Origin: an uncultured Bacteroidales bacterium
GTDB taxonomy: Bacteria > Bacteroidota > Bacteroidia > Bacteroidales > F082
Assembly: GCA_946187645.1 (NCBI GenBank)
Contig: CAMHRP010000020.1
Span: 1,780-65,779, forward strand
Length of the DNA stretch: 64,000 bases
Direction: 5' to 3'
Position numbers and translations under genes: made by a program. Under the pieces are notes generated by a model that was not told the DNA's origin, ran no database searches, and worked only from the letters and a program-made list of their open reading frames with translations. This document shows, piece by piece, positions 36,199 to 55,246 of this stretch (positions are counted from its first letter, which is position 1; every line of letters begins with the position of its first letter).

Positions 36199-37473
36199 CT
36201 AATCTTTCAAACACCCGATAGGCACAACAAACACTCCGTCTTCACGGCGGTAGGCATACATTCCCACGCCCACCAGCACCATCATGAACGACGGCTCTTT
36301 CATCTTCTCCGTGTCAATCTTACCCGAAAGATTTATCAATGATGCTGCACCTTCATTGATGAGGTCGTCGCCACCCAGCTTTATCTCAACCAGACCGTAA
36401 CGGCCATCCCTCAAATGTACAACTGCGTCACATTCCAGCCCGTTCTTGTCCCTGAAGTGATACACCTTGCCATTAAGAGCCTCGGCATAAGCTCGGAGGT
36501 CTCGCACAGCCAGCGTCTCATACATCAAACCAAATGTGTTCAAATCGTTTACCAAGTCTCGAGGGCCTATGCCCAATGCAGCCGTGGCAATCGAGGGGTC
36601 GGTAAAATACCGCGTGTCGCTCGTCCGTATCGCCGTCTTGCTCCGCAAGTTGGGATTCCATGCCTCGCTGTCCTCAACCACAAAAATCTCTTTCAATGCC
36701 TTGATGTACGATGCGATGGTGTCTTCCGACAAAGCGTCCGACTCATTCGCAATCATGTCTGCCCTGATGGTGCCGCACGATGCTTGGCTGCCTTGGTTTC
36801 GCGCCAGTGAGCGCAACAGGCGGTGAACCCTAACGGGGTCGCGATCCACACCGTCCACCTTCGAGATATCACGTTTCTCTACCGCCTCCACGTAGTCAAA
36901 CGCCTGGTCTAAAGCTATCTCGTTTTCCATCCCCACCGCCAATGGCCATCCTCCGCGGCAGGTCAAGAATGCAAGCTGCTCAATGGACATGTCGTTGACA
37001 GCACCAATCTGTTCGGGTGACTCGAACAATTCAGCCAGTGACACCTCGCCGGTCGATTCTTGCGACTCCCAAAGGCTCATGGGGCGCATCCTCAGCCACC
37101 CAATGCGTCCTGTTCCCGAGTGAACCACCTTACTCATGTCGGCTGGAACGGCTGAGCCAGTCAGAATAAACTGACCCAGCGGGCCGTGGTCTGATTCAAA
37201 ACGAATGCTGTCCCACAACTGAGGGGTAATTTGCCATTCATCAATAAGCCGGGGAAACTCACCTTTCAACAGCAGTTTCGGGTTCAGCGATGCCATTTTG
37301 ATGTTCTGGTCAACCATACCAGTTTCCGTCATATACTTCACACTCTTGGCAATCTGCTCCGCCGTAGTAGTCTTTCCGCACCATTTGGCACCTTCGATAA
37401 GCACAGCCCCTTTGCCTGCCAACTTACGCTCTAACAGCCTGTCAGCTATCCTTTTTTTATAGGTCTTATCCAT
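36199..37473 (-). CDS. AAA+ ATPase with C-terminal DUF4143 (COG1373-type ATP-binding protein), paralog 1
   Basis: VLIEGAKWCGKTTTA Walker A and the C-terminal ECDAVVHL...GLVEIKLG nuclease-fold-like motif. The start is set at MDKTYKK after the -7 box. Confidence 0.8.
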   Translation of the reverse strand: MDKTYKKRIADRLLERKLAGKGAVLIEGAKWCGKTTTAEQIAKSVKYMTETGMVDQNIKMASLNPKLLLKGEFPRLIDEWQITPQLWDSIRFESDHGPLGQFILTGSAVPADMSKVVHSGTGRIGWLRMRPMSLWESQESTGEVSLAELFESPEQIGAVNDMSIEQLAFLTCRGGWPLAVGMENEIALDQAFDYVEAVEKRDISKVDGVDRDPVRVHRLLRSLARNQGSQASCGTIRADMIANESDALSEDTIASYIKALKEIFVVEDSEAWNPNLRSKTAIRTSDTRYFTDPSIATAALGIGPRDLVNDLNTFGLMYETLAVRDLRAYAEALNGKVYHFRDKNGLECDAVVHLRDGRYGLVEIKLGGDDLINEGAASLINLSGKIDTEKMKEPSFMMVLVGVGMYAYRREDGVFVVPIGCLKD

Positions 37474-37496
37474 ACTTTTTTGTTTGAATTGCGTTG

Positions 37497-37504
37497 CAAA
37501 GATA
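37497..37504 (-). promoter_or_regulatory. -7 box (TATCTTTG on the minus strand) for ATPase paralog 1
   Basis: Reverse complement of CAAAGATA, 23 nt upstream of the ATG at 37473. Confidence 0.5.
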
Positions 37505-37521
37505 TGGATTTTCTTTTTGCG

Positions 37522-37586
37522 TTCACCCGTTTGGCTAAAATTCATTCACCTGTTTGGCCAAAAATCATTCACCCATTTGGCCAAAT
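37522..37586. repeat. three tandem 23-bp repeats, each carrying a TTTGGCCAAA-type palindrome
   Basis: TTCACCCGTTTGGCTAAAA / TTCACCTGTTTGGCCAAAA / TTCACCCATTTGGCCAAAT at 37522, 37545 and 37568, just upstream of the ATPase promoter. Confidence 0.8.
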
Positions 37587-37790
37587 ACCGTTCGCCCAAA
37601 GAGGTCGCACCTTAACCCGATTCAAGTTTTGCAAGCCCATTTTATTTGCCCAATGTGGCGTTGAAGATGTCAGCCTGTCGCTATACCGTTCCTCGCTGAT
37701 GAGGTTGCAGAACTCGATGTAGTCCATACGGAAGTTGTCGAATCGTTCTCTAATTGACAATCCTTTGCCAAACATCAGCAGTCCGGCCAT
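37569..37790 (-). pseudogene. possible remnant of an AlbA_2-type (Schlafen-like) gene
   Basis: The 73-aa ORF starts MAGLLMFGKG, resembling the AGLMYFAK segment of the 41341-42801 protein. The rest is not convincing. Confidence 0.25.
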
Positions 37791-37902
37791 CGTCAGGCCC
37801 TTTTTGCCTGTGAGTTGAATCTGAGTCCTACCCCCTTTAAATACCGAACGCTGTTTTCTCGCATATTTTTGTAAATCAACAAACAGATTTCAAAAAAAAC
37901 AG

Positions 37903-37910
37903 TAATTTTG
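37903..37910 (+). promoter_or_regulatory. -7 box (TAATTTTG) for the Panacea pair
   Basis: TAnnTTTG 25 nt before the ATG at 37936. Confidence 0.5.
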
Positions 37911-37935
37911 CAGCGTGACAGTAATAAGACAATCC

Positions 37936-38532
37936 ATGATTTCGAATTTGGGATTACAGGTAAATGCAAACAAGATAGGTGCATTGCTCGAATATATCTG
38001 CAGCCAGATGCCGCAGATTCATTTGCGCAAGTTACTGAAAGTAATATACCTCATGGACGAGAAATCCGTGCAGATGCGAGCCATTCCGCTAACATGGCTT
38101 GACTATTACGCATGGAAGAAAGGTCCTGTGGCTCCAAGCATTTATGAAGTCAAGGATGGCGCTTTTGCAAATTTTGTGACATGTGTCAAAGAAGATGATG
38201 GCAAATGGCATGTGTCTGCCAACAAGACGAATCCCTACGCTATCGACCAAGATTTGAAGGGCTTTAGCGAATACGAAATGGACATCATCAATAGTGTGAT
38301 TGCCTATTGTAAGGACAAGTCAGCCGATGACTTGACTGACGAGACGCACAGCGAAGACTCGTTGTGGTCGCAAACAGTGTCGCAACATCATATCACTTTC
38401 GATGAGACTGGCCGTTCAGAATACCCGATTTGTCTTAACGACTTGAACGATGCCGAAGGAAAGGAAATCTATGCTGAAGCATTGGATAGCATTATGATGC
38501 AGGCTTCTCTTAATTCGGCACTCCATGTTTGA
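37936..38532 (+). CDS. Panacea (DUF4065, SocA/GepA-like) domain antitoxin candidate
   Basis: LRKLLKVIYLMDEKSVQMRAIPLTWLDYYAWKKGPVAPSIYE and FSEYEMDIINSVIAYCKDKSADDLTDETHSEDSLW match the two conserved blocks of DUF4065. Confidence 0.8.
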   Translation: MISNLGLQVNANKIGALLEYICSQMPQIHLRKLLKVIYLMDEKSVQMRAIPLTWLDYYAWKKGPVAPSIYEVKDGAFANFVTCVKEDDGKWHVSANKTNPYAIDQDLKGFSEYEMDIINSVIAYCKDKSADDLTDETHSEDSLWSQTVSQHHITFDETGRSEYPICLNDLNDAEGKEIYAEALDSIMMQASLNSALHV

Positions 38533-38995
38533 ACCCGGCACTGTCACATACGGATTTGCCAAAAACATAAACAATCCCAAATACAAATACGCCATCAGCA
38601 TATTTAGGGATGAAGATGTGCAGGTTGTCATTCATTTCACGACCAGCCAAAGACGTGCAGGTGTCCCCGACAATCAGATAAAACACGGCATCAACCGTGA
38701 CGCAGACGGCCAAGTGGTGTCGTATGTGTTTGAACCCGAAGTAGAGATTGGTGACATTCCAACGGGCGGTCGTTTTTGCTTTCCTGTCCGCACGGTCATG
38801 CAGTTCGACTATGGCTTTCTACGCGGCGATGACTGGAGCTTGCAGCAACAGTTTGACGATTTGGAAGTCAAATGTCATTTGGACAGAGAAGAGTACCTTA
38901 ATCTGGTCTACGCCATGTATTGCAGCAAGCGCACACCGACCGAATACAAGCCTTACTTGGAGAAGGTGCTTGAAGAGGCGTATGGTTCTAAATAG
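38525..38995 (+). CDS. hypothetical protein, candidate cognate toxin of the Panacea antitoxin
   Basis: 156 aa. The start overlaps the upstream stop by 8 nt (ATGTTTGA). No motif I recognise. Confidence 0.6.
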   Translation: MFEPGTVTYGFAKNINNPKYKYAISIFRDEDVQVVIHFTTSQRRAGVPDNQIKHGINRDADGQVVSYVFEPEVEIGDIPTGGRFCFPVRTVMQFDYGFLRGDDWSLQQQFDDLEVKCHLDREEYLNLVYAMYCSKRTPTEYKPYLEKVLEEAYGSK

Positions 38996-39044
38996 GCAAT
39001 GTTTTAAGTAGTTGATTGTTATATTTGGGATTGGCGAATGGTGT

Positions 39045-39178
39045 TTACTTCTTAATCCCATACTTCCTGTTTTTATACTCCCCTTCCACCTCAAGGATGC
39101 CTTCGTCCATGAGCTGTTTGTGATGGTCATTTTCTCAGGCTTCTCTCCGTTCATCGAAGCTATCAGTTCAAAAACCAA
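39045..39178 (-). pseudogene. internally deleted copy of the small wHTH gene (copy 1)
   Basis: It starts MVFELIASMNGEKPEKMTI (compare MVFEPIASMNEEEPDKTTI at 41274). The HTH-coding middle is missing, and the 3' end (CTTCTTAATCCCATACTTCCTG...) is homologous but out of frame. Confidence 0.6.
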
Positions 39179-39262
39179 AAGCCTTAACCCTTATGCCCAA
39201 TCCGAAGATAAAACGACTTATACTATCCGCATTTTCTAATACTTTCAATATGCATAATGCAT

Positions 39263-40612
39263 TCAAAGCAGAGGCGTCATATATAAAGGAAGATACACGA
39301 TGCCTTCTTGCACTTTCAGGTCTGATGTGTGAAGCACATAGGGTGTTGCAACCTGTTTCGAGAATTTGTTGATGAACTTTTCTAACGAGGTGGTTACATA
39401 ACGGTTGGTTGATTTAACTTCTATCGGACAGATATTGTGCCGGTTGGTGAGGTCGGGTTTGGGAATGAGGAAATCGATTTCCATGCGGTTTTCAGCCGAC
39501 TTACGGTCCGAGTTGGAGTAGAAATACAGTTTGTGACCCGAAACGCGCAGCATTTGCGCCACCAAATTCTCAACCAACATTCCCTTATTGATCTCCAATT
39601 TATTGAGAATAAGCTTTCTATATAGCTGGTCTCTGGCGAGTATTCTCTCGTCGAAAGCGTGGGAAACCAGCAGTCCTGTGTCGCCGAAATAGCATTTGAA
39701 GGTGGTACGTTTGCGGTTGAGTCTCAATCCAATGTCGGGTGCTGTGGTATTGTAGCACAGGTTGACTACGCAAGCATCGTTAAGCCAAAAGAAAGCATCT
39801 TCATAATCCCTCATCCGAGCGCCTTTTTGCAGGGATGCCAGCTTGAATTTCTTCTCGTGTTGCTGCAATTGTGCAGGTATTTCGTCAAATATGCTCGTCA
39901 CTTTCGACTCGGCTTTGGTGGCATACTTGCTGATGTCGTTGCGATAAAGCTGAAGGATGCCACGCTTGGTTTCGTCAACAATGTCAAAATCCCTTGTCTC
40001 CACAAATGCCTCCACGGCTTGGGGCATTCCGCCCACTATCATGTATTGGCGGAGATAGTCTAACGTCTTGCGGTGCAAGCTGCCCATGGGTTCAAGGCGG
40101 TCGAATTGCCGACGTATGAAATCCATAGTCATATCATCGCCCAAAGCCCACAGAAACTCCTCAAAATCCATGGGAAACATCTCAATCCGTTGTTCCTCGG
40201 AGGGAATCACGATGTCGATCACGTTTTTCTTGATAGAAACTAGCGACCCGGTTTCGATGAAGTCGTAGCGTCCGTCTTTCACCAAGTATTTGATGGCGGC
40301 TCTCGCTTTAGGGTATTGCTGAACCTCATCGAAAATGATTAGCGATTCGCGCGGGTAGAGCCTAACTCCAAAGTATAAGGAAAGACGCAGGAAAAACTCG
40401 TCACGGTTTGGAAGGTAATGTTCGAAGACATTCAGCAGTTCCTCGTCCATGTCGTTAAAATCCACAAGGATATAGGACTTGTATTCGTTTTTTCCGAACG
40501 CATCCACAATATAGCTCTTGCCGATGCGCCTTGCGCCTTCAATCAACAATGCAGTCTTTCCTTGTTTTTCGTTTTTCCATCGCAGTAGCTCCTGGTAGAT
40601 TTTTCTTTTCAT
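39263..40612 (-). CDS. AAA+ ATPase with C-terminal DUF4143, paralog 2
   Basis: LLIEGARRIGKSY Walker A, IIFDEVQ Walker B, C-terminal EIDFLI...ICPIEVKS motif. Confidence 0.8.
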   Translation of the reverse strand: MKRKIYQELLRWKNEKQGKTALLIEGARRIGKSYIVDAFGKNEYKSYILVDFNDMDEELLNVFEHYLPNRDEFFLRLSLYFGVRLYPRESLIIFDEVQQYPKARAAIKYLVKDGRYDFIETGSLVSIKKNVIDIVIPSEEQRIEMFPMDFEEFLWALGDDMTMDFIRRQFDRLEPMGSLHRKTLDYLRQYMIVGGMPQAVEAFVETRDFDIVDETKRGILQLYRNDISKYATKAESKVTSIFDEIPAQLQQHEKKFKLASLQKGARMRDYEDAFFWLNDACVVNLCYNTTAPDIGLRLNRKRTTFKCYFGDTGLLVSHAFDERILARDQLYRKLILNKLEINKGMLVENLVAQMLRVSGHKLYFYSNSDRKSAENRMEIDFLIPKPDLTNRHNICPIEVKSTNRYVTTSLEKFINKFSKQVATPYVLHTSDLKVQEGIVYLPLYMTPLL

Positions 40613-40628
40613 GACAATCAGCGTTTTG

Positions 40629-40715
40629 CACCTTTTCAAGAGATAAACAAACCTATTTTATACACCTTTTCAAGAGATAAACGAGGTTGATCCTACACCT
40701 TTTCAAGGGATAATC
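40629..40715. repeat. three direct 20-nt repeats (CACCTTTTCAAGRGATAAHC) spaced 33-34 bp apart
   Basis: Copies at 40629, 40663 and 40696, immediately upstream of the ATPase paralog 2 start (40612). Confidence 0.8.
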
Positions 40716-40998: not shown

Positions 40999-41274
40999 TT
41001 AAAACACGACTTGCTTAATCCTATACTTCCTGCTTTTATACTCCCCCTCCACCTCAAGGATGCCTTCATCCACGAGTTGTTTGAGATAGTCGCGGGTCCT
41101 TGAGGACTTGAGTCCGATGGCTTTCGAAATGGATTTTGCGTCAGAAATCACGTTATCGGCGATAAAATTGATGATTTGTCGCCGATTTTCTTCATTTCGA
41201 TTTCGATTTTTGGATTTTATGGTCGTTTTATCAGGCTCCTCTTCGTTCATCGAAGCTATCGGTTCGAATACCAA
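40999..41274 (-). CDS. small winged-helix transcriptional regulator (intact copy 2)
   Basis: 91 aa. RRQIINFIADNVISDAKSISKAIGLKSSRTRDYLKQLVDEGILEVEGE is a wHTH pattern. Confidence 0.7.
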   Translation of the reverse strand: MVFEPIASMNEEEPDKTTIKSKNRNRNEENRRQIINFIADNVISDAKSISKAIGLKSSRTRDYLKQLVDEGILEVEGEYKSRKYRIKQVVF

Positions 41275-41340
41275 ATACTTGCAGAATGGGCACGAAAAGC
41301 TCTATTATGCATGTCCTTTTAAGGCTGCAAATATATTTTT

Positions 41341-42801
41341 TCAATTATGGTCACCTATCACTTCCCAATGTCCATTCTTGCGGCCACCAATACGCTTCAA
41401 CACCCTATATTGCTGCAATCGACCAATGTTGTACTTAACACCATCCTCGGTAATGCCGTCGATAGCCTCAGCCACTTCCTGTCGGGTTGCTGTCGGATGT
41501 TCTTGCAGGTATTTTAAGATTTCCTTTTGGGTAGTTGTCAAAGGCTTTTGGGTAGTAATTTCGCTCTTTTGGGTAGTGGATTCATCCTTTTGGGTAGCGG
41601 AAATCAGCTCTTCATTGGCCTTTTGGGTAGTGGTTTCGTCCTTTTGGGTAGTCCTCCAAATGCGAGCAATGAACTGATTGCCGTCGGGACGGTCTATCAG
41701 TTCCACGTCACAATTCTCAGCCATCACTCGCGGAATGCCCGAGCCAAGTCCCCTGTAGGGCATCGTCTTGGATCCAAATTGTGCCAGTTGGGGATTGCGT
41801 GGGTCTGAATTGCCGAGCAGGATTTCATCTATGGTTTGTCCGTCTGGCAAACAACCAGGATTCACAATCTCAACCCTGTTGTCAAAGACAAGCAACCTAA
41901 TGGCTGCTGGCTTTAGAAGGTCCAGATGCACCAATGCGTTCTGGACAAGTTCTTGCAATACCACCTCTGAAATCTCCAAATCTCCTTCGCTGTTGAATGA
42001 CTGGCCATTTTGCGGACGGCTCAAACAAGACTTCAACCATCGCATTGCGTCCTCATACATCTCAGGGATGGTTCCCGTAATGTCGCGACTGTCACGATAA
42101 TGTGTGCCACCGATGTGATTCCCCACAAACCATACCGCTTTGATGCAATGTTGGGGACGAAACATCTGAGGCTCCTTGGCAAAATACATCAGTCCTGCAA
42201 TGGTAAGCCGTCCAAGTTCATCTGTGATGTGTGCATTCTTCAGAATCGTTGGGACTGGGATATTGAACTCGTCAACCCTCTTTCCGAAAACCTTGTTGAA
42301 GTATTCGTCAAGAGCCTTTGTGTCAATGTCAGCCTCGCTACTACCGTCAACACCTTCCTCGTCTGCCTGGTATTGATGTGACTTCTGGAAAAGCCTGCGA
42401 ATCTCGGCGTTTTCCGTAACACGACGTTTGTCGGCGCCTTGCTTTACCCAGATATTACCTGACAAATCTTTGTATGGCTTGTAATCACCACTCTTCACGT
42501 AGGCCACCAGATAGGCCTGTCCATCATGTTTCAGTGTTTCAGTTTCAATATAGATGGTCGGCCTCACATGGTCATTGGCAGTATTGCCCAATTCGCGTGA
42601 AGTATATTGCAGCTGTTCGTAAGTGAGTCCCACCATTCTGCCTGTCTTATCCTCGGCACCAAACACAATGGTGCCTCCGTGTGTGTTGGCAAAAGCCACC
42701 AACTCTTCTGCAATCTGTTTTGGAGTGGTGAATTCCAACTTAAACTGCACAGTGGTGTTTTCACCCAAACTGCATAATTCAACAAGTTCTTGCTCTGTCA
42801 T
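41341..42801 (-). CDS. AlbA_2 (Schlafen-like) plus HATPase_c_4 plus C-terminal wHTH protein (the type often annotated RecG-like ATP-binding protein)
   Basis: N-terminal ENTTVQFKLEF...ELVAFANTHGGTIVFG, central ELVQNALVH...NPG, a TTQK repeat linker, and C-terminal ILKYLQEHPTATRQEVA. Confidence 0.75.
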   Translation of the reverse strand: MTEQELVELCSLGENTTVQFKLEFTTPKQIAEELVAFANTHGGTIVFGAEDKTGRMVGLTYEQLQYTSRELGNTANDHVRPTIYIETETLKHDGQAYLVAYVKSGDYKPYKDLSGNIWVKQGADKRRVTENAEIRRLFQKSHQYQADEEGVDGSSEADIDTKALDEYFNKVFGKRVDEFNIPVPTILKNAHITDELGRLTIAGLMYFAKEPQMFRPQHCIKAVWFVGNHIGGTHYRDSRDITGTIPEMYEDAMRWLKSCLSRPQNGQSFNSEGDLEISEVVLQELVQNALVHLDLLKPAAIRLLVFDNRVEIVNPGCLPDGQTIDEILLGNSDPRNPQLAQFGSKTMPYRGLGSGIPRVMAENCDVELIDRPDGNQFIARIWRTTQKDETTTQKANEELISATQKDESTTQKSEITTQKPLTTTQKEILKYLQEHPTATRQEVAEAIDGITEDGVKYNIGRLQQYRVLKRIGGRKNGHWEVIGDHN

Positions 42802-42990: not shown

Positions 42991-43067
42991 AAGTTAATTT
43001 TAAGCGATTAATTACTTCCAATTACTTTTCAGCAACTCTACACCAAATTCCCATCCAATCCAGCCAT

Positions 43068-43310
43068 TCACTTCTTAATCCTATACTTCCTGTTTTTATA
43101 CTCCCCCTCCACCTCAAGGATGCCTTCCTCCACGAGTTGTTTGAGATAGTCGCGGGTCCTTGAGGGCTTGAGTCCGATGGCTTTCGAAATGGATTTTGCG
43201 TCTGAAATCCCGTTATCGGCGATAAAACTGATGATTTGTCGCCGATTTTCTTCATTTCGATTTCGATTTTTGGGTTTTATTGACGTTTTATCAGAATGGT
43301 CTTGTAGCTT
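43068..43310 (-). pseudogene. 5'-truncated copy of the small wHTH gene (copy 3)
   Basis: The frame is intact from ..KPKNRNRNEENRRQIISFIADNGISDAKSISKAIGLKPSRTRDYLKQLVEEGILEVEGEYKNRKYRIKK*. There is no in-frame ATG, and an upstream in-frame stop sits near 43313. It is nearly identical to copy 2 at the DNA level. Confidence 0.55.
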
Positions 43311-43874: not shown

Positions 43875-46800
43875 ATGATGATTCAAGTCGGCAACATAAT
43901 TCAAAACCTGATTCCTTCCGAATCTGTTATCGTTACCAAGGTGCAGCCCTTGGGCAGTCACTTTTCCATCAGCTACAAAGGCGTGAACACCAACAAGGCC
44001 AGCAGCGTCATCATCGATGCCGCCAAGCTGGAAACGCTGGAGGTCGTTGCCGACGAAGGCAAGTTCAACTTCAAGGGCAACCCTGAGAAGTTCAAACTCT
44101 TCGCCGAGGCCGAGCGCATCAAGACGGCATACCAGTTCGACCCGCTCTTTGCCATCAACTGCAGCGTGGTCGACCCGCTACCGCATCAGGTGGAGGCCGT
44201 CTATAAGTTCCTATTGCCGCAGCCGAGAATCCGTTTCCTCTTGGCCGACGACACTGGTGCTGGTAAGACCATCATGACAGGTCTGCTCATCAAGGAAATG
44301 CTCATGCGCAAGATGGTCGAGCGCATTCTCATTGTCACGCCCGGTGGCCTCACCAAGCAATGGCAGGAGGATGAAATGGGCGTGAAGTTCAATCTGCCCT
44401 TCACCTTGGTCAATAGCCAAGTCTTCAATTCCGACCCCACCATCTTCCAAACCCACGACCGTTTGGTGGCTTCCATAGACCTCATTTGTCGCGACAAATA
44501 CATGAAGGTGCTCGAAAACACCAACTGGGACTTGGTCATCTTCGATGAGGCACACAAGCTATCGGCTTACGAATACGGTCTGAAGACCTATCGGTCGCGA
44601 AGATACGAGGCCGCTTTCATGCTCTCGCAACGATGCGAGCATGTCCTTCTTCTAACCGCTACGCCCCACCGTGGCCGCCAAGACACATTCAAGCGTCTGC
44701 TCCAGCTGTTGGATGAAGACATCTTCGCTACTGCCGACATCGCTGCCGACCGCGTCAAGGAACTCAGCCAAGACGGCCTGAACAAGTTCTTCATCCGTCG
44801 TCTGAAAGAGGACATGAAAGACTGGGAGGGCAACCCACTCTATGTGAAGCGTTCCACCAGAACGGTTTCCTACCAGCTGACACCCGAGGAAAAGAAACTC
44901 TACGATGCGGTTACCAAGTACCTCACCAAGCGCAAAGAAGAAGCCATCTCCACCAAAAACATCCATGTCACCCTTGCCCTCGCTGTCATGCAGCGTCGTT
45001 TGGTCAGCTCCATCTATGCCATCAAGAACACCTTGCAGCGCCGTTGGACGGCTTTGCAAGAGCTGGTCGATGAGCTTGACCGCAACCCAGCCCTTTGGTC
45101 TCAGAAGGAAAAGTTGGAAGAGCTTGTGGACTACGATAATGTGGATGACTACGAAGACCTTGATGACGACGAGAAGGATGCCTTGGATGCCATCCTTTGC
45201 GACCCCAAGAAACTGAAATGGTTCACCACGGCTTCAAGCCCCAAGGAGTTGAAGCATGAGGCACAGGAGGTGAAGACACTCTATGAGATGGCCAACAACC
45301 TCTATATGCAGAATCAAGAGGAAAAGAAATATCAGGAGTTGAAGCATCTGCTGAAGAGCCAAGGCGTTGTTGACGGCGAAAAGCTGGTGCTTTTCACTGA
45401 ACACAAGGACACCCTGCTTTATCTTCAAGACCGCCTGAAAAACAACGGCTACAAAGTCACCACCATCCACGGTGGCATGTCGGTTGATGAGCGTCGCGAG
45501 TCTCAAGTCAAGTTTATGACCGACCAGGCGCAAATCCTCATCGCTACCGATGCCGCTGGTGAGGGTATCAACCTGCAGTTCTGCCGACTGCTCATCAACT
45601 GGGACATCCCGTGGAACCCCAACCGACTGGAGCAGCGCATGGGGCGTGTCCACCGTTATGGCCAAAAACGCGATGTCCTCGTCTTCAATATGGTTGCCGA
45701 CAACACCCGCGAAGGTCAGGTGCTGGCCAAGTTGTTACAGAAACTTGACAACATCCGCGAGGACTTGGGCGACGACCGCGTCTATGATGTCATTCAAGAT
45801 GTGCTGAAAGGCATTTCCCTCGAAGACATCATCTCCTCGGTCTTCAATGGCCAGCCCACTCAGTTTGATGCTTTCATCGACCAGGACAAAGACCAAATCC
45901 GCGACCTCTTCAAGAAGAAAATCGAGGAAAACACCAAGTCGATGGCCATCAGCAAGGTCGATTTCAAGGATGCCCAACTGCTGAAGGAAGACTCCGATGA
46001 AAAACGGCTCCAGCCTATCTACATCCGCCTCTTCTTCGAAAAGGCGTTCCGTTATCTTGGTGGCGAGTATGAGCAAGTCAAAGAGGGCATCTATCGCATC
46101 AACAAGGTGCCTGCCGTGATTTCCGACCGCCTCCGCGACAACTACAAGATTTACTCCGACAATGTCACGAAGCTGCTTTTCTGCTTCGACAAGCATATCT
46201 TCCTCGACTATAGCAACGCCAGTTCCCTCATGGGCAAGGCGCACTACATCAACCCGGGCAATCCGCTTTTCGATTGCTTGGTCGATACCGTTCGCGACCT
46301 CTATCGAGACGAGATGATGAAGGGCACCGTCTTGGTTTCGCCCGACGATAGGGATGCCTATCTGGCCTTCTATGTCAAGAACCAAATCACCGACAACCGT
46401 CCTTCCAAGGAAGGCGACAATGTGGCCAACGAGAATCTGGCTTTGGTGTGTAAGGATTCGGATGGCAACTTCTCCGTCACCTCTCCCGCCAAACTGATCG
46501 ACCTCGACATCCCGACGCAATACGCCAAGGAAATCACACCGCCCGAAGTGGAGGACGAGCAGGATGTCATGGCTTGGTCGTTTGAGAAGATTGCCATGCC
46601 GCTCTTCGAGAGCACCAAGCAGAAGGTGGAGGAAGACAACGAAGCCCGTCGCCAGTATCTCGAAGAAGCCTTCAATCGGGTGATTGAAGACTTGGACGGT
46701 GAAATCAACGAGCTTCAAGGCAAGACCTTGATGAACGACAACGAAAAGCTTCAGGAGAAGCTGCAACGCAAATATGCCCTGCGGTATCAGGCAGAGCAAA

Positions 46801-47309
46801 AGCGACAGGAAAGGCTTCACAGCCTCGAAAAGATGGTGGAGTTGCAACAGCGCACCCCCGAGGTACTAGGCTGCGCCTATGTCGTGCCGCTCAACCAAAT
46901 GGAATACAAAAGCCATTTCGGCATGAGCCGAGACGACGAGGTGGAAGCCATCGCCATGAACGAAGCCATGAAATACGAAAAGCAAGAAGGACGCATCCCC
47001 ACCGATGTCTCAAAGGACAATGTGGGCTACGACATCCGCAGCACTGCAACCGATGGGCAGAAACGCTACATCGAAGTGAAAGGCCGTGCCGCCACCGATG
47101 GCGTGATGCTCTCCGAAAACGAGTGGAACCGCCTCACCCAATTGGGCAAGCGCGCTTGGCTCTACATCGTCACCGACTGCAAAACCCATCCCACCCTACA
47201 TATCATCAACGACCCAGGCAACACCCTCGATTTCGAAAAGACCGTCAAGGGCGTTCAGTATTACCTCCCGCTCGAAGAGTGGAAAGCACATGAAAATCTA
47301 AACCAATGA
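43875..47309 (+). CDS. SNF2-family helicase with C-terminal DUF3883 (restriction-endonuclease-like) domain
   Basis: LLADDTGAGKT, VIFDEAHKL, LLTATP, ATDAAGEGINLQ, QRMGRVHRYGQ. C-terminal GYDIRS..RYIEVKGRA..LSENEW..WLYIVTDC. Confidence 0.9.
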   Translation: MMIQVGNIIQNLIPSESVIVTKVQPLGSHFSISYKGVNTNKASSVIIDAAKLETLEVVADEGKFNFKGNPEKFKLFAEAERIKTAYQFDPLFAINCSVVDPLPHQVEAVYKFLLPQPRIRFLLADDTGAGKTIMTGLLIKEMLMRKMVERILIVTPGGLTKQWQEDEMGVKFNLPFTLVNSQVFNSDPTIFQTHDRLVASIDLICRDKYMKVLENTNWDLVIFDEAHKLSAYEYGLKTYRSRRYEAAFMLSQRCEHVLLLTATPHRGRQDTFKRLLQLLDEDIFATADIAADRVKELSQDGLNKFFIRRLKEDMKDWEGNPLYVKRSTRTVSYQLTPEEKKLYDAVTKYLTKRKEEAISTKNIHVTLALAVMQRRLVSSIYAIKNTLQRRWTALQELVDELDRNPALWSQKEKLEELVDYDNVDDYEDLDDDEKDALDAILCDPKKLKWFTTASSPKELKHEAQEVKTLYEMANNLYMQNQEEKKYQELKHLLKSQGVVDGEKLVLFTEHKDTLLYLQDRLKNNGYKVTTIHGGMSVDERRESQVKFMTDQAQILIATDAAGEGINLQFCRLLINWDIPWNPNRLEQRMGRVHRYGQKRDVLVFNMVADNTREGQVLAKLLQKLDNIREDLGDDRVYDVIQDVLKGISLEDIISSVFNGQPTQFDAFIDQDKDQIRDLFKKKIEENTKSMAISKVDFKDAQLLKEDSDEKRLQPIYIRLFFEKAFRYLGGEYEQVKEGIYRINKVPAVISDRLRDNYKIYSDNVTKLLFCFDKHIFLDYSNASSLMGKAHYINPGNPLFDCLVDTVRDLYRDEMMKGTVLVSPDDRDAYLAFYVKNQITDNRPSKEGDNVANENLALVCKDSDGNFSVTSPAKLIDLDIPTQYAKEITPPEVEDEQDVMAWSFEKIAMPLFESTKQKVEEDNEARRQYLEEAFNRVIEDLDGEINELQGKTLMNDNEKLQEKLQRKYALRYQAEQKRQERLHSLEKMVELQQRTPEVLGCAYVVPLNQMEYKSHFGMSRDDEVEAIAMNEAMKYEKQEGRIPTDVSKDNVGYDIRSTATDGQKRYIEVKGRAATDGVMLSENEWNRLTQLGKRAWLYIVTDCKTHPTLHIINDPGNTLDFEKTVKGVQYYLPLEEWKAHENLNQ

Positions 47310-50300
47310 AAGCAAAGAAACTCATAGAAGTGGCCATGCCGATTAAGGAGATTTCGGCAGAGAGCGTCCGCGACAAGTCGATTCGTCACGGTCATATTTC
47401 AACCCTGCACCTGTGGTGGGCGCGTCGTCCCTTGCCCGTGTGTCGTGCCGTGGTGTTCGCCAGCCTTGTGCCCGACCCCTTGGATGAGCACTGCCCGCAA
47501 GCCTTCAAAGACGCTGTGGCCGACTTGCTCAAAAGCGATACCTACAAACCCTACGACGACATCCCCTATACTACGGTCGTTGACAAGATGGACGACACCC
47601 CTCGTCACCGTCTGATGATGTTCATCGGCAAGTTCTCCGACAAATGCCAGAAGAACATGAATGCCGGAAAAGCCACTTCACCTGCCGAACAGCTTTCTGC
47701 TGGTTCTCTTATCAAGTGGGAGAACAAGAACAACGAGGCGGTGCTGGGCATTGCCCGTAAGTTGATTTGGGTGGCTTACAACGCCGACAAAGACGCTTCG
47801 CTTTCGTATGAGCGGTTGAGCAAGGACTTCGACCATGCCTATTCAGCCATCCATGAGGCCGAAAAAGCCCTTTATGAGTTGACCGACCGTCACAAGGCAA
47901 CACCCGAAGTGCAGCAGGCCGAAGCCCGTTTGCAAAAAGCCATTGATGATTTCCAGCAGCGTATGCCCAGCGTATTCGACCCCTTCGCGGGTGGAGGTGC
48001 CATCCCACTCGAAGCCGCCCGTTTGGGCTGCCGCAGCTATGGCAACGACATCAATCCTGTGGCGCACATCATCGAGCGTGGTTCTGCCGAATTCCCTCAA
48101 AAGTACGGCAAGCCTATTCGTTATACCGAAACCGAGTTTCGCCGCATCTATGGCAAAGAAGGCGTAGATATGTTGGCCGAAAAAGGCTTTGCCTTCTTCG
48201 ATGGCTTTGTTGAGATTCCCAACCGTCTGGCTTGGGATGTGGAGTTCTATGCCAAACGCATCCTTCGCGAAACTGAAAAGGAAGTGGGGTGGATGTATCC
48301 AGCGGACGAAAATGGGAATAAGCCTATTGCATTTTATTGGGTGAGAACAGCTAAATGCTCAAATCCTAGTTGTGGGGCTATTGTTCCAATGTTAAAAGGC
48401 TTTGATTTAGTGCATACTAACTCTAAACAGTTTTATTTAGATCCGACAATTGAAGGCAAGAGCATTAGTTTTTCAATTAAACAAGGAAGAAGTTCATCAT
48501 CAAGTTGGAATAATCGTGGAAATGTTACATGTCCTTGTTGTGGAAGCCTTACGAGTGTGGGCCAAGTAAAAGAACAATCCAAAAAGAATCGACTTTCACC
48601 AATTCTAGTTGCTACTATCTACGAAACAAATAATGGGAAAAAGTATGGAATACCTACAGCAAAGCAAATCAAAGTGCTTTCAACCCCCATTGAAGTTATA
48701 GATAGGCCAACGGAAAGTATGCAACGAAATTCAAATGGTGGTGATACCTTTCCTTGGGGATTTACAAAATGGGGCGATTTGTTTTCAGATAGGCAATTAT
48801 TCATGCTCTCTCATTTTGTCAACCAAATTAAAGGAATTGGACGATTATTGGATGATGAAAAATATGGGAATATCATCGAGACCTATTTAGCTCTTTGGTT
48901 TGATAGAATTGCTTTAATTAACACTTCATTTAGTAGGTATGATACAAGTAGAGAAAATGTACAACATATGTACAATCGTCAAGCTATTGCCATGGTTTCA
49001 GATTATCCTGAATCTAATCCTTTTTGCGACAGTTCAGGCTGTGCTCTAAATCAGTTGGATTGGGTATTAAGATATATAGAATCTGAAAGCCCTAATTCAT
49101 ATAGTGCCAACTTTGCTAATGCTTCTAGTGGAGATAAAGAACAATTCGAAAAGAAACAACTATCAGTTGTGGTTACTGACCCTCCTTATTATGATGCCAT
49201 TGCTTACGGCGATATATCAGATTTTTTCTATATCTGGATGAAAAAGATTTTGTGCGAAATATATCCACTGAATTTTGCAACCCCACTTACCCCAAAGACT
49301 GAAGAATGTACTGCGTTAAGACACCATCATAATGACAATGAAACTGAAGCGAAAAAACACTTTGAAAACAAATTGACTGACATTTTCGATGCAATTGAGA
49401 GACAAACTTCTGATGTGGTAAGTATTATGTTTGCTCATCAAAGCACAGAGGCGTGGACTACACTTTGCAATTCCATCTTGAATGCTAGGATGAATATTAC
49501 AGGTAGTTGGCCAATGGATACCGAATTGGCCAATAGAACTTTAGCTATATCAAGTTCCGCTTTGGAGTCCTCCGTCACCGTTTCTTGTCGTCCATCCCAG
49601 CGTCAAGGCTTTGCAGAATACAAGGAGGTGAAGAAAGCCATCGAAAAGAATGTGAAGGAAGAAGTGAACAAACTCTACGACTTAGGCTTCCGTGATGCCG
49701 ACTTGCTCACAGCTTGCTTCGGTCAGGCCGTTAGTGAGTTTGGCAAATACGAGGTGGTCGAAAAGAGCAACGGCGACCTTGTGTCAGTAGCTGAATTGCT
49801 CGAACTAGCTCGAGAAGCAGCCTTTAATGCCTTGCTCGAAGGAGTCGAAGGTGACAATTTTACCAAGTTCTATATTGGATGGCTTCGATTAAATGGTATG
49901 AAAGAAACTGACTACGATGATGTCACCAAGTTCACCCGCGTCGGCCTGCCTATCGATGTCAAGGAAGTCTTCAGCCAAGGTCTGCTGGTCAAGGAGCCGA
50001 GTGGCAACAAACAACATCTGGCCACTGCCGCCGAGCACCTCGAAGGCGACCACATTGCTGGCACCCGTGCCACCGATTTGCTCATCGACCAAGCCCACCG
50101 AGCTATCTTGATTTATAAGGACGGAAACCGTGCCGCCCTGCTGAAACTGCTACGCGACATCAACGCCCAAGATGCCAACGCTTCCTTCTGGAGGCTCTTG
50201 GCTTCCTTGAAAGAGCTGTTGCCCGCCTGCGATGACTTAAAGCAAGTCCAAGGCTTGCTACAAAACGGCGAAGACCTCCGTCAATCCAGCCGTCAGACCG

Positions 50301-50338
50301 AACAACCCACATCTACCCAAACAACAATCGAGTTCTAA
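47306..50338 (+). CDS. DUF1156-domain DNA methyltransferase with Zn ribbon (COG1743 type)
   Basis: N-terminal IRHGHISTLHLWWARRPL, SAM motif FDPFAGGGAIPLEA (47975-), CSNPSC...CPCCGS, motif IV VVTDPPYYD (DPPY at 49178-49189). The start overlaps the helicase stop (ATGA). Confidence 0.9.
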   Translation: MKAKKLIEVAMPIKEISAESVRDKSIRHGHISTLHLWWARRPLPVCRAVVFASLVPDPLDEHCPQAFKDAVADLLKSDTYKPYDDIPYTTVVDKMDDTPRHRLMMFIGKFSDKCQKNMNAGKATSPAEQLSAGSLIKWENKNNEAVLGIARKLIWVAYNADKDASLSYERLSKDFDHAYSAIHEAEKALYELTDRHKATPEVQQAEARLQKAIDDFQQRMPSVFDPFAGGGAIPLEAARLGCRSYGNDINPVAHIIERGSAEFPQKYGKPIRYTETEFRRIYGKEGVDMLAEKGFAFFDGFVEIPNRLAWDVEFYAKRILRETEKEVGWMYPADENGNKPIAFYWVRTAKCSNPSCGAIVPMLKGFDLVHTNSKQFYLDPTIEGKSISFSIKQGRSSSSSWNNRGNVTCPCCGSLTSVGQVKEQSKKNRLSPILVATIYETNNGKKYGIPTAKQIKVLSTPIEVIDRPTESMQRNSNGGDTFPWGFTKWGDLFSDRQLFMLSHFVNQIKGIGRLLDDEKYGNIIETYLALWFDRIALINTSFSRYDTSRENVQHMYNRQAIAMVSDYPESNPFCDSSGCALNQLDWVLRYIESESPNSYSANFANASSGDKEQFEKKQLSVVVTDPPYYDAIAYGDISDFFYIWMKKILCEIYPLNFATPLTPKTEECTALRHHHNDNETEAKKHFENKLTDIFDAIERQTSDVVSIMFAHQSTEAWTTLCNSILNARMNITGSWPMDTELANRTLAISSSALESSVTVSCRPSQRQGFAEYKEVKKAIEKNVKEEVNKLYDLGFRDADLLTACFGQAVSEFGKYEVVEKSNGDLVSVAELLELAREAAFNALLEGVEGDNFTKFYIGWLRLNGMKETDYDDVTKFTRVGLPIDVKEVFSQGLLVKEPSGNKQHLATAAEHLEGDHIAGTRATDLLIDQAHRAILIYKDGNRAALLKLLRDINAQDANASFWRLLASLKELLPACDDLKQVQGLLQNGEDLRQSSRQTEQPTSTQTTIEF

Positions 50339-50410
50339 CCCCCAGCGTCCCGCGTCCCTTTGTCCCGCGTCCCGCATCCAAAATAACGAACAACAAAATA
50401 CCATCGAGAT

Positions 50411-53400
50411 ATGAATGAGAATGTATTCAAAGCTTTAGGCGTTTTCCTCGAGACTATGCGTCCTTATGTGGTCAGCATCTTGCAGAAGTATTTTCCCAAC
50501 GAGCCATGGGAAGGCGTGATGTTTGCCAAGCTCAGCGCCGATAAGCAGGCTTCATGGAACCGTAATGCAAAAGAAATGCAAAAGACCGGGGCACCAAGCA
50601 TGGGTCTCATCGACTTTAGCAACCTCACTTCTTTTGCTTTCAGCTTCAAGGAGTTGCTGGTAAAGGAATTTGGCGAATCCAAGCAGGCCAACAAGTTCAT
50701 CAGCTATGTGCAAGAGCTTGAAGACACCCGCAACAAGTGCCAGCACTACCAGTCTATTGATGAGGACGAAATTGTCCGCACCTATAGCAACATCAAGATG
50801 GTGGCGCGTCTCATTGGCGATGATGACCTCTACGACGAGGTGACCCGCATTTCCGCTCCCAAGGCCAAGCCCGTGGAGCAGCCATCCGTCAAGACTATTG
50901 AGGTGCGTCCTGAATCCATTATAGATGACAATAGCCAAGTGACGCCGTGGTTTGCCAATGTCATTCCCCACTACGACATCAGCCGTTCCATTCTCGATGA
51001 GTCCATCTTTGCCGCCAACCTCGGTGATGTGGCTATGGGTACAGCTCCCGAGGTCTATACCAACTCGGCATCCTTCTTTGAAAAAACCTATGTCACTCAC
51101 GGTCTGCGCGACATCGCCACCCGTGTGGTCACCGCCTTGAATGGTGGAGTGACCGAAAACCGCGTCATCTCCCTGAAGACAGGTTTTGGCGGTGGTAAGA
51201 CCCATACCCTCATCACGCTTTACCATATCGTCAAATGCGGCTCCAAAATGGCTACGATGGAGTCGTGCCGCGACTTACTCAAAGAAGGCTTGGTGCCTGA
51301 GTTCGACAACGCCAAGGTCGCTGTCTTCACCAACAACACCACCGATGTGGCGCAAGGTCGCCAAACCGACGACGGCCTTACCATCAACACCATCTGGGGC
51401 GAAATTGCCTATCAACTGGGAGGCGTTGAGGCCTACAAGGTGGTGGAAGAAAACGACCGAGAACGCATTGCTCCTTCGAGTGGCGTCTTCCAGCCCATCC
51501 TCGAAACCACCAAGCCAGCCATGATTCTCATTGATGAGCTGGCCGACTATTGCGTCAAGGCTTCAGCCAAAAAAGTGGGCGCAGGCAACCTCTATTCCCA
51601 GACGCTCAGTTTCGTGCAAACGCTCACCGAGATGGTCTCTTCCGTGTCCAGATGCCTTCTCATTGTCACCTTGCCCGAAAGCGTCGTAGAAGTCGCTTCT
51701 ACCGCCATCGGCCAGGACATTCTCACTTCGCTGGAACAGCGCGTGATTCGTGTTGGCTCTGCCATCAAACCCATCGAGGACGAAGAAGTGTTTGAGGTGG
51801 TGCGCCGCCGTTTGTTCGACGAGATTAAGGACTATACTGTGGTTGACGATGTGGCGCGTCGCTACCAGCGCATGTACCACAACCGTTACAACGACCTTCC
51901 GGCGCAGAGCGACAACAATGCCTACGCCGACAAGATTCGCAAGTCTTATCCCTTCCATCCCGAGTTGATTGAGATGTTCCGCTTGCGTTGGGGCAGCGAC
52001 CCCCATTTCCAACGCACCCGTGGCGTGTTGCGCCTCTTGGCCTCAATAGTTCAAGATTTGTGGCGTCGCCGCCAAAATCTGACTGGAACCCAATCCTTGA
52101 TACATACCAGCGACATCAATCTTGAAAACTTGCCCACACTCACAGGCACCATCACCAACCTGATGGGAAGCCAGTGGGAAACCGTCATGCACGCCGATGT
52201 CTATGGCTCTGCCAGCAATGCCTTTAAGATTGATTCCAACGAAATGGGTTCCAACACTGGCCTTTACAGCCTGACGCAAGGCATTGCAAATACCATCCTT
52301 TTGGCATCCATCGGTACTTTTGCCAAAAATGGTGTCACAATCAAAGAGCTGAAACTCTGTATGTTGAAACCCAACGCCTTCAACCATAACGACATTGATG
52401 GGGCTTTGAACAAGTACGAACAAGTGGCTCATTATCTCCACTATTCTACTATCGGCGAGAAGCGATATTGGTTCCACTCCAAGCCCAACATCAATATCAT
52501 CTTGAATCAGGCCAAGAACGAAATTAACGACGATGAAAAACGCACCGAAATCGTCAGGCGTTTGAAGAACAGTTGCTCCTTCATCCCCGACCTGAATGTG
52601 TTGATAGCACCTACAGGCGACATCCCCGAGCAGAAGTCGCTCACCTTGGTTTTGATGGGACCAGAATACGCAGTTCCGATTGACAGGCTGAATGCTCCCG
52701 TCGAAAGCTATGTGAAAACCAATTCGCTGAAGCGTGGCGAGGCCGACCGCCTCTATCGAAACACAATGTTTTATCTGGTCTGCTCCGAGCAAGGCAAGTC
52801 CAACCTTGACGGCAAAATGCGCGACTACTTGGGCTGTGTCAAGGTGCAGAATGTCTATTCTGCTTCCATCGAGAAAGACCAGAGGGATGAAATCCAAAAG
52901 CGTAAGGATGCTTTCGACAAGGAAGCCTTCGATGCATTGGTTCAAGCCTACGCCGTAGTGTTACGCTACACCTTCGACAAGGGCATCCTCCGTTACGATG
53001 TGAAAAACTATGCCTCCGATTTCTCGTCACAGGTCATGCAAAACATCCTTCCCGAGCTGAAAGAGGAAGAGTGGCTGCTCGATGCTGTGGGTCGTGGTGT
53101 CTTGGCCAACAACAACCTACTGCCAACGGGTGAGAATCCCATCCGTGTCAAGGACTTCTATGAAGCCTTCTTAAAGTTCGACGACAAGCCGATGATTACT
53201 GGCTCCGAAGCCATCATCCAAACCATCAACCGCTATTGTTCCGAGGGTTTGTTCAATGTGGCATCGGGCGAAAAAGGCAATTACGACAAGGTGTATAGCA
53301 AAGAAAGAGTCCCGTTCCTCAATGTCACCGACCCCGATTATTGGTTGGTCGACAAGAGCATAACCAAGGAAGAGCCAGCTCCAACACAACCTACTGAACC

Positions 53401-53695
53401 CGACCCAACACCCAATCCAACACCTCCGACAGGAACTGGCGGCGAACCCGAGCCAACACCTGGCGGCACGAAGCACTACAAGAAAATCAAAATCAGTGGT
53501 AGTGTCCCCAAGGAGCAATGGACGCAACTGTGGACAAGCTTCCTCGTCCCCTTGAAGGACAACGGCCTGCACATCACCGTCGAGTTCGAAGCTCAGACCA
53601 CATCCAAAAACCCCTTGGACGAAAACTCCCATGTCATCAAATGCGTCAAGGAGTCTGCCGCACAACTTGGACTGGATTTTAAGGCAGAAGAATAA
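50411..53695 (+). CDS. DUF499-type AAA ATPase (COG1483) with N-terminal HEPN-like module
   Basis: TRNKCQHY (R107-x4-H112, nt 50729-50746) in a helical N-terminal ~140 aa. Walker A GFGGGKTHT, Walker B MILIDELADY, P/T-rich linker and a small C-terminal domain. Confidence 0.85.
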   Translation: MNENVFKALGVFLETMRPYVVSILQKYFPNEPWEGVMFAKLSADKQASWNRNAKEMQKTGAPSMGLIDFSNLTSFAFSFKELLVKEFGESKQANKFISYVQELEDTRNKCQHYQSIDEDEIVRTYSNIKMVARLIGDDDLYDEVTRISAPKAKPVEQPSVKTIEVRPESIIDDNSQVTPWFANVIPHYDISRSILDESIFAANLGDVAMGTAPEVYTNSASFFEKTYVTHGLRDIATRVVTALNGGVTENRVISLKTGFGGGKTHTLITLYHIVKCGSKMATMESCRDLLKEGLVPEFDNAKVAVFTNNTTDVAQGRQTDDGLTINTIWGEIAYQLGGVEAYKVVEENDRERIAPSSGVFQPILETTKPAMILIDELADYCVKASAKKVGAGNLYSQTLSFVQTLTEMVSSVSRCLLIVTLPESVVEVASTAIGQDILTSLEQRVIRVGSAIKPIEDEEVFEVVRRRLFDEIKDYTVVDDVARRYQRMYHNRYNDLPAQSDNNAYADKIRKSYPFHPELIEMFRLRWGSDPHFQRTRGVLRLLASIVQDLWRRRQNLTGTQSLIHTSDINLENLPTLTGTITNLMGSQWETVMHADVYGSASNAFKIDSNEMGSNTGLYSLTQGIANTILLASIGTFAKNGVTIKELKLCMLKPNAFNHNDIDGALNKYEQVAHYLHYSTIGEKRYWFHSKPNINIILNQAKNEINDDEKRTEIVRRLKNSCSFIPDLNVLIAPTGDIPEQKSLTLVLMGPEYAVPIDRLNAPVESYVKTNSLKRGEADRLYRNTMFYLVCSEQGKSNLDGKMRDYLGCVKVQNVYSASIEKDQRDEIQKRKDAFDKEAFDALVQAYAVVLRYTFDKGILRYDVKNYASDFSSQVMQNILPELKEEEWLLDAVGRGVLANNNLLPTGENPIRVKDFYEAFLKFDDKPMITGSEAIIQTINRYCSEGLFNVASGEKGNYDKVYSKERVPFLNVTDPDYWLVDKSITKEEPAPTQPTEPDPTPNPTPPTGTGGEPEPTPGGTKHYKKIKISGSVPKEQWTQLWTSFLVPLKDNGLHITVEFEAQTTSKNPLDENSHVIKCVKESAAQLGLDFKAEE

Positions 53696-54010: not shown

Positions 54011-54018
54011 TATATTTG
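54011..54018 (+). promoter_or_regulatory. -7 box (TATATTTG) dedicated to the low-GC two-gene cassette
   Basis: TAnnTTTG 50 nt before the ATG at 54069. Confidence 0.5.
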
Positions 54019-55241: not shown

Positions 55242-55246
55242 ACAAA

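Follow-up and report, generated by a model that had tools for sequence, protein, structure and literature searches.

A 64,000-nucleotide stretch of DNA from an uncultured Bacteroidales bacterium (contig CAMHRP010000020.1, positions 1,780 to 65,779; termed the window here, at its full length) carries two overlapping genes, panA and panT, which encode a 198-residue Panacea-domain protein and a 156-residue partner. On balance, the pair is read as a mobile, two-gene type II toxin–antitoxin (TA) cassette, in which PanA would be the antitoxin and PanT a divergent, enlarged ribonuclease (RNase) toxin with the MazF fold. Confidence is greatest for the MazF/PemK fold of PanT, which structure predictions make very probable. 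It is also likely that panA–panT constitutes a TA-like PanAT module, and RNase activity as the means of toxicity is slightly favored. An earlier note on this DNA had proposed a new toxin of unknown mechanism. This is not supported: the combination of PanA with sequence-divergent MazF-like toxins was described and validated by Kurata et al. in 2022 (PMC8832971), which leaves the current picture of TA biology unchanged, and both MazF catalytic positions appear to be conserved in PanT.

Conservation of the panA–panT Pair

A complete or near-complete panT lies directly 3' of panA, on the same strand, in 35 of the first 38 related loci collected. The four distant PanT members (∼20–25% identity) and the four IMG/VR viral contigs likewise have panA directly upstream, and a Panacea gene immediately precedes every intact PanT homolog examined. 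The two genes overlap by as much as 22 nt in some related loci and are separated by no more than 12 nt in others. The flanks are unrelated between contexts (dnaN/RNase T; glycosyltransferases; sugar epimerases; a primase/AAA_25/DUF3853 mobile element; prophage tail/terminase/integrase genes), indicating that panA and panT travel as a unit. Identities of PanA and PanT to the window pair co-vary, with r = 0.95 over 27 distinct pairs, and in the sense of Kurata et al. 2022 the window genes are conserved PanAT neighbors. The earlier note had described a Panacea-type antitoxin gene with a dedicated, overlapping downstream partner, and had set conservation of the two as neighbors as its test beforehand; with the pair retained in many unrelated contexts, the description stands.

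Both genes are under purifying selection, with ratios of nonsynonymous to synonymous substitution (dN/dS) of 0.08–0.14 in comparisons with 95%-identical loci (panA, 0.11–0.14; panT, 0.08–0.10). Where the cassette has decayed, the damage is to panT. The gene has two frameshifts in locus L022, one frameshift at the TTSQ motif in L036, and is cut to its last 28 codons in L037; panA is intact in all three. L021 holds a dead panT remnant and no panA, and a 20-residue in-frame deletion in panT of L033 removes the H54-G55 pair described below. No intact panT without panA was found among the loci examined. Damage of this kind, with broken panT beside intact panA and never the reverse, is what would be expected from a PanT that does harm when unopposed.

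The three closest loci (L012–L014) share ∼95% nucleotide identity with the window, confined to 37799–38995. Homology stops at 38994–38995, the panT stop codon, and the flanks beyond the cassette differ between the window and these loci. The cassette bounds were therefore set at 1.2 kb and, as delimited by nucleotide homology, the unit appears to consist of a promoter, panA, and panT (Table I). The loci closest to the window cassette belong to rumen "uncultured Bacteroidia" metagenome-assembled genomes (MAGs; RUG11296, RUG14460). An in-frame GTG at 37915 would provide an alternative panA start and a protein of 205 residues (seven more); in a 290-member cluster at the 90% identity level, however, the protein is on record with 198 residues. 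The 8-nt overlap between the genes, ATGTTTGA, agrees with the downstream start reported in the earlier note, implies co-transcription of panA and panT, and possibly couples their translation.

The −7 element of Bacteroidetes promoters, as known from Bacteroides, has the consensus TAnnTTTG. The box upstream of panA, TAATTTTG, is a fit to this consensus, and is the promoter box that the earlier note had placed at 37903. Of 33 related loci, 31 have a TAnnTTTG box 17–74 nt 5' of panA, and the box is the sole upstream element kept in diverged relatives, at a fixed distance from the panA ATG. No −33 TTTG is present at canonical spacing from TAATTTTG. A scan of the + strand for sigma-70 promoters and intrinsic terminators gave nothing above shuffled sequences, and is uninformative for Bacteroidetes. 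TAnnTTTG is enriched across the window, with 53 copies where shuffled sequences would give 33.6 ± 5.3; most copies sit just 5' of open reading frame (ORF) starts, which fits a Bacteroidota genome.

Two further observations concern relatives of the cassette. L005 (2275–3298) and L025 (∼900–1500) carry a second, divergent pair, which in L005 lies ∼1.5 kb 5' of the main one and comprises a 197-residue PanA and a 145-residue PanT paralog (E 2e-38 to the PanT family profile). The tandem paralogous cassettes adjoin a DDE transposase. In L041 (2987–4396), a distant PanAT pair lies directly upstream of a Hen1-like RNA 3'-methyltransferase (Hen1_L and methyltransferase domains). This RNA-repair-type neighbor is of note beside a predicted RNase toxin, and is a single case.

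The PanT Family Lies Outside Known Sequence Models

An exhaustive profile search covering 1.84 billion proteins identified 142 PanT representatives at the 50% identity level, nearly all of 145–165 residues; at close range, the family comprises 64 clusters. Homologs are almost all unnamed metagenomic proteins, with no RefSeq or UniRef name among those found. In cluster look-up, the toxin family and the PanA cluster each yielded a single MAG accession from NCBI. Members with a genomic assignment derive from Bacteroidales MAGs of gut, rumen, or faecal origin (Paludibacteraceae, Bacteroidaceae, Muribaculaceae, and Parabacteroides).

Searches of Pfam, NCBIfam, PADLOC, and PHROGs placed window PanT in no family. 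A set of 81 full-length representatives, which was also used for residue counts and for profile–profile alignment, matched no family in Pfam. A Phage_portal_2 match of PanT in Pfam (E 0.12) was dismissed as chance. The earlier note had found the 156-residue protein unrecognizable; this is borne out at the level of sequence models, and is not at the level of predicted structure.

Predicted Fold and Putative Catalytic Positions of PanT

The N-terminal half of PanT is, by eye, PemK/MazF-like ("PG.v.yg...(K)-K-Y-a-I-s-i...v.i.f-T-T-S-Q"). A structure predicted with AlphaFold2 from a 36-sequence alignment (model 1) has a mean predicted local distance difference test score (pLDDT) of 94.4 and a predicted template modeling score (pTM) of 0.89, and comprises seven strands, one short helix, and two C-terminal helices. 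Foldseek comparison of model 1 with the PDB returned MazF for all of the first 11 matches (probability 0.66–1.0, best E 7e-3), at template modeling (TM) scores to MazF structures of 0.54–0.66, normalized to the target. MazF proteins matched by model 1 include Mycobacterium tuberculosis MazF-mt3, Escherichia coli MazF, Deinococcus radiodurans MazF, MazF-mt1, and MazF-mt9. The best match among viral models is annotated as PemK-like.

A second model was predicted for P0117, a family member 25% identical to window PanT, from a separate alignment (model 2, pLDDT 85.9). All of its first 34 PDB matches are MazF, EndoA, or MoxT, with a best E of 5.4e-4, probabilities of 1.0 for the first 17 and 0.85–1.0 over all 34, and TM scores of 0.50–0.65 normalized to the target. 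Foldseek was a check that the earlier note had itself suggested, and with MazF ranked first for both models the protein is not unclassifiable.

Profile–profile alignment points in the same direction. The template for hhalign consisted of seven textbook MazF/Kid/ChpBK sequences, confirmed against PF02452. The 81-member PanT family aligns with it over 97 columns in full topological register (P 0.028, score 17.8). Of 200 column-shuffled templates none reached this score (9.1 ± 1.7, maximum 15.5), and the reversed template scored 10.2. A MazF profile search intended to deepen the template added nothing, as the 120 matches listed were nearly all Bacillus-type NdoA/EndoA orthologs. Taken as predicted, PanT is a divergent, enlarged MazF/PemK-fold protein that falls within the fold and outside PF02452 (PemK_toxin).

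Arg29 and Thr52 are essential for catalysis by E. coli MazF. In the weak profile–profile alignment, which uses sequence columns only, PanT K21 falls on R29, and T39/T40 on T52/T53. Position 21 is always basic (Lys in 72 of 81 sequences, Arg in 9), and position 40 is Thr in 76 and Ser in 3 of the 81, followed by Ser (71) and Gln (49). Among the polar positions of the family, position 21 and the region of position 40 show the strongest conservation, and PanT plausibly keeps the MazF catalytic dyad. Relative to MazF, PanT has an extra C-terminal helix (residues 139–153) and an insertion of ∼25 residues (∼43–66) after the TTSQ strand. The insertion bears an H54-G55 pair that is invariant in the close family; across the broad family, His is present in 51 and Gly in 74 of the 81 sequences.

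PanA is a Stand-Alone Panacea Protein

PanA matches the Pfam family SocA_Panacea (PF13274) with E 3.1e-19. The score of 70.4 bits clears the cut-off of 25.7, and the match spans residues 33–144 of PanA and model positions 1–112 of 113. It also matches phrog_1281 (E 6.6e-20). The NCBIfam SocA equivalog NF047745 scores 31 bits (E 1.8e-7), below its cut-off of 190. By these two profile results, PanA is classed as a Panacea protein that is not SocA. Invariant columns in the subfamily alignment (Y57, G63, P64, V65, L133, H138, and W144) fall within the blocks W.KGPV and LT..TH....LW. These are the two DUF4065 blocks that the earlier note had recognized.

Searches of PanA with Pfam, NCBIfam, PADLOC, and PHROGs found the Panacea domain only, with no helix-turn-helix, PAD1, ZBD, or Phd-C domain; a DNA-binding domain for autoregulation of the operon, as in a classical type II TA antitoxin, was likewise not found. 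PanA is thus classed, from its sequence, as a "stand-alone Panacea" antitoxin candidate that lacks DNA-binding or other known neutralizing domains. The Panacea domain is followed by a C-terminal extension of ∼50 residues, ending in a conserved helix motif (E/D-x-Y179-x-x-A182...Q-A-x-L-N). This motif is kept even in PanAs of 25–30% identity that partner distant PanTs.

Points Against and Alternative Explanations

A number of observations weigh against a PanA-controlled MazF-fold toxin. PF02452 has no match at E ≤ 1 in window PanT or any of its 81 relatives, whereas this test recovers seven bona fide MazF/Kid sequences with E-values from 1e-10 to 1e-38. PDB sequence searches with PanT and its profiles found no MazF, returning only noise (CFAP36, PflB, and AlfA). 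The hhalign probability for the PanT family against MazF is just 1.8%, and the Foldseek E-values are modest (7e-3, 5e-4). With a third of PanT falling beyond the MazF core, TM scores normalized to the query reach only 0.4–0.5. Most PanT members have Lys where MazF has its catalytic Arg. Among the MazF-like PanTs of Kurata et al., the T5 toxin of C. bovis is toxic and is not rescued by its PanA, and the T8 toxin of F. xanthum is non-toxic in E. coli (PMC8832971). For PanA, neither an operator nor a DNA-binding domain was found; no convincing or conserved palindrome is present near its promoter, which leaves autoregulation unexplained. The panT frameshifts occur in MAG assemblies, and could be assembly errors. 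Finally, toxicity of PanT and neutralization by PanA are derived from sequence, predicted structure, and the literature.

The alternative that survives best, and is still fairly unlikely, is a conserved module that does not act as a growth-arresting TA system in its host. PanA and PanT might form an infection-activated phage-sensing pair, or PanT might be a non-toxic RNA-binding partner of PanA. Such a role would suit the location of the pair in a defence island and on prophages, and the proposal by Ernits et al. (PMC10440598) that Panacea is a sensor domain; in addition, Kurata et al. saw no toxicity in E. coli for eight of the 25 PanTs that they tested, one MazF-like protein among them. The one-sided decay described above argues instead that unopposed PanT is harmful, and the putative catalytic dyad is conserved. 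This alternative also overlaps a TA function rather than excluding it, given that defence by TA is still TA.

CcdB and MazF share a fold, and the same TA-like cassette could in principle encode a CcdB-like toxin, one that does not cut RNA but binds to and poisons DNA gyrase or some other protein target. The Lys in place of the MazF catalytic Arg would be compatible with this, as would the presence of a CcdB structure (7epi) at rank 18 of the model 1 matches (E 0.4, TM 0.57 normalized to the target). MazF outranks CcdB in model 1, however, and CcdB is absent from the top 50 Foldseek PDB matches of model 2. The CcdB profile (PF01845) has no Pfam match in window PanT or the 81 relatives, and K/R21 together with T/S40-S41-Q42 mirrors a MazF/PemK motif, "R-P...(I/T)-T-S/Q", that is absent from CcdB. 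The C-terminus of PanT is a different, extra helix and not a gyrase-binding tail, and a CcdB-like mode of action is considered quite improbable.

It is very improbable that the pair is a type VI system like SocAB, with PanA as a proteolytic adaptor to ClpXP and a toxin that blocks the DnaN sliding clamp. The Pfam family is named after SocA and PanA has a weak match to the NCBIfam SocA model, but at 31 of the required 190 bits; moreover, the predicted partner has the MazF fold, SocB forms a separate cluster (T10) in the Kurata data, and the PanAT pairs that have been tested act as type II complexes (PMC8832971). Chance adjacency or a mis-called ORF, for which the lack of an annotated family and of named homologs might speak, is effectively refuted by the family size and uniform length (142 representatives, all about 145–165 residues), the dN/dS of panT, the confident AlphaFold2 fold, and a PanA neighbor that is kept across 20–97% identity and unrelated flanks.

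Proposed Mechanism of the Cassette

As a type II TA cassette, panA–panT would operate as follows. Transcription of both genes would start from the Bacteroidetes-type promoter to which the −7 box at 37903 belongs. Of the two proteins, the antitoxin would be made first and, with the panT start placed inside the panA stop (ATGTTTGA), synthesis of the toxin would follow that of the antitoxin. PanT is envisaged as a sequence-specific, ribosome-independent endoribonuclease that cuts mRNA or other RNA, leading to arrest of translation and growth. K21 would stand in for Arg29 of MazF, and T39/T40 for Thr52, while the H54-G55 insertion probably shapes substrate choice or supplies a third catalytic group.

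PanA would neutralize PanT by direct binding. The likeliest contact is made by the PanA C-terminal helix (Y179/A182), laid over the RNA-binding face of PanT, or else by the Panacea core. From its conservation, the C-terminal motif is proposed to bind the toxin in the way that the C-terminal tail of MazE binds MazF. Ernits et al. 2023 showed that a stand-alone Panacea domain can neutralize directly, and that other PanAs use appended C-terminal helices (PMC10440598). The site of the cassette in a defence island and the presence of its relatives on temperate phages make abortive-infection-type defence or stabilization of mobile DNA its likely biological role.

It is possible to speculate further, and a bolder picture is distinctly unlikely. 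PanT would then be a distinct and so far uncatalogued branch of the MazF superfold with Panacea partners only. K21/T40 and H54-G55 would make up an altered active site, whose target or chemistry would not be that of a canonical mRNA interferase; cutting of a specific tRNA or rRNA is one example. PanA would be a phage sensor, and the whole an abortive-infection system of gut Bacteroidales carried between "slots" defined by winged helix-turn-helix (wHTH) repeats in a defence island.

Comparison with Known Systems

Kurata et al. 2022 defined Panacea/PanA and 88 partner toxin clusters (PMC8832971). In Dataset S1 of that work, clusters T5 (87 label mentions), T6, T8 (52 mentions), and T25 are EndoA/PemK/MazF-like, labels that derive mostly from HHpred because no conserved-domain match exists. 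The PanTs of Pseudomonas moraviensis (T6) and Bifidobacterium ruminantium (T25) are validated translation inhibitors that are neutralized and complexed by PanA (PMC8832971). Lack of a DNA-binding domain is usual for the "noNTD" PanAs of Dataset S1. Ernits et al. 2023 count MazF/PemK with the folds that recur most often at sequence-diverse TA nodes.

The window cassette resembles the PanAT systems with MazF-like toxins (T5, T6, T8, and T25) in having a Panacea antitoxin without an N-terminal domain, encoded first, and a small downstream toxin that overlaps the antitoxin gene or lies within a few nucleotides of it. In both, the toxin lacks a conserved-domain match and is MazF-like by structure or profile methods, and the distribution is patchy and mobile, prophages included. 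The absence of any RefSeq member among PanT homologs suggests that the family was unsampled by Kurata et al., and it may not be in their 20,209-genome set; PanT is set beside T5, T6, T8, and T25 by their descriptions only.

Window PanT differs from canonical MazF in being ∼40–45 residues longer and in its H54-G55 insertion, extra C-terminal helix, and mostly Lys for the catalytic Arg. In common with MazEF and PemIK (Kis-Kid), the cassette has the predicted toxin fold and secondary-structure order, basic and Thr residues at the putative catalytic positions, an antitoxin-first operon, and a presumed RNA-cleaving arrest. However, its antitoxin is a Panacea protein with no DNA-binding domain, unlike the AbrB/SpoVT-type MazE, and its toxin is not recognized by the PF02452 model. 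SocAB of Caulobacter crescentus, a type VI TA system, has an antitoxin with the same Pfam domain; in contrast, window PanA reaches 31 of 190 bits on the SocA equivalog, its toxin is of predicted MazF fold and not SocB, and the pair is expected to work by direct binding and not by ClpXP-adaptor proteolysis. The CcdB/MazF superfold relates PanT to the toxin of CcdAB, whereas the weaker structural match, the absence of a CcdB sequence signal, and a different antitoxin and C-terminus separate the two.

PanT adds a candidate toxin family of predicted MazF fold that is uncatalogued by sequence (∼140 clusters at 50% identity, with no Pfam or NCBIfam model), and so lengthens the already long list of Panacea partners. 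Nearly all of its members come from metagenomes of gut and rumen Bacteroidales or from phages of these bacteria. The proposed mechanism is testable at K21, T40, and H54 of the toxin and at the C-terminal helix of PanA. In practice, a recurrent "hypothetical protein" of Bacteroidales defence islands can be better annotated, and panAT might serve Bacteroides genetics as a module for counter-selection or defence.

Genomic Context

The panAT cassette is located in a defence island that extends from 36.2 kb onward in the window, to the right of the housekeeping genes argS, pyrB, pyrI, and lemA (Table I). Two divergent DUF4143/AAA_14 ATPases stand one on each side of the cassette. Further on, the region 43875–56317 contains a complete Hma (helicase-methylase-ATPase) defence system and a Dazbog DzbA homolog, beside which a 356-residue ORF could be DzbB.

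Table I. Coordinates of the panAT Cassette and of Neighboring Features in the Window
Feature	Position	Strand	Remarks
panAT cassette, upstream (promoter) part	37799..37935	+	Nucleotide homology to L012–L014 begins at 37799–37802
Putative −7 promoter box TAATTTTG	37903..37910	+	Fits TAnnTTTG; ends 25 nt before panA ATG
panA, 198-residue antitoxin candidate	37936..38532	+	ATG 37936, TGA 38530–38532
panA/panT overlap ATGTTTGA, 8 nt	38525..38532	+	panT start and panA stop, read from sequence
panT, 156-residue toxin candidate	38525..38995	+	ATG 38525; predicted MazF/PemK-like SH3-barrel fold
DUF4143/AAA_14 ATPase, PADLOC candidate system PDC-S01	36199–37545	−	E 3e-59
DUF4143/AAA_14 ATPase, PADLOC candidate system PDC-S01	39263–40639	−	E 3e-114
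Schlafen AlbA_2 + HATPase_c_4 + wHTH protein	41341–42801	−	
HmaA	43875–47309		PADLOC E 5e-208; SNF2 + NOV_C
HmaB	47306–50338		E 8e-131; DUF1156 methylase
HmaC	50411–53695		E 2e-139; DUF499; N-terminal Swt1-like HEPN domain
Dazbog DzbA homolog	54030–55241		E 5e-59
356-residue ORF, DzbB candidate	55247–56317		

The cassettes of the island are separated by a small winged-helix gene, present in three direct-repeat copies (39044–39179, 41007–41275, and 43067–43303) that are 84–94% identical. A 91-residue ORF at 40999–41274 (−) is the intact-looking copy, and the copy beside panT has an internal deletion of ∼128 nt. In L012 and L014 the repeat is found on both sides of panAT, and L013 has the order lemA, repeat, panAT, without the first ATPase. 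This flanking of panAT by the repeat in related genomes suggests that cassettes are exchanged by recombination at the winged-helix repeats.

Relatives of panAT also occur on phage DNA. In L047 (IMGVR_UViG_3300045988_143585), a 60-kb viral contig, the pair lies near the contig end, between a terminase-containing block and a tyrosine integrase, and in L039 it adjoins Phage_tail_S and Clp-protease genes. Carriage by phages or prophages fits a role in defence or in the stabilization of mobile elements.

Just left of the panAT cassette, a 73-residue ORF at 37569–37790 (−; "AGLLMFGKGLSIRERF...") has no Pfam match. By eye it is like an internal piece of AlbA_2/Schlafen-type proteins such as that encoded at 41341–42801, and it may be a gene remnant truncated on arrival of the cassette. 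The 3' part of this AlbA_2 gene contains four copies of a 21-nt-spaced repeat (CTTTTGGGTAG...) at 41524–41651, which encode a reiterated "TTQK" peptide motif right before the wHTH domain. Three direct repeats of ∼25 nt (TTTTGCACCTTTTCAAGAGATAAAC), 33–34 nt apart, are present at 40624–40715, where they span the 5' end of the second ATPase gene (39263–40639, −) and the DNA immediately before it; they could be regulatory binding sites.

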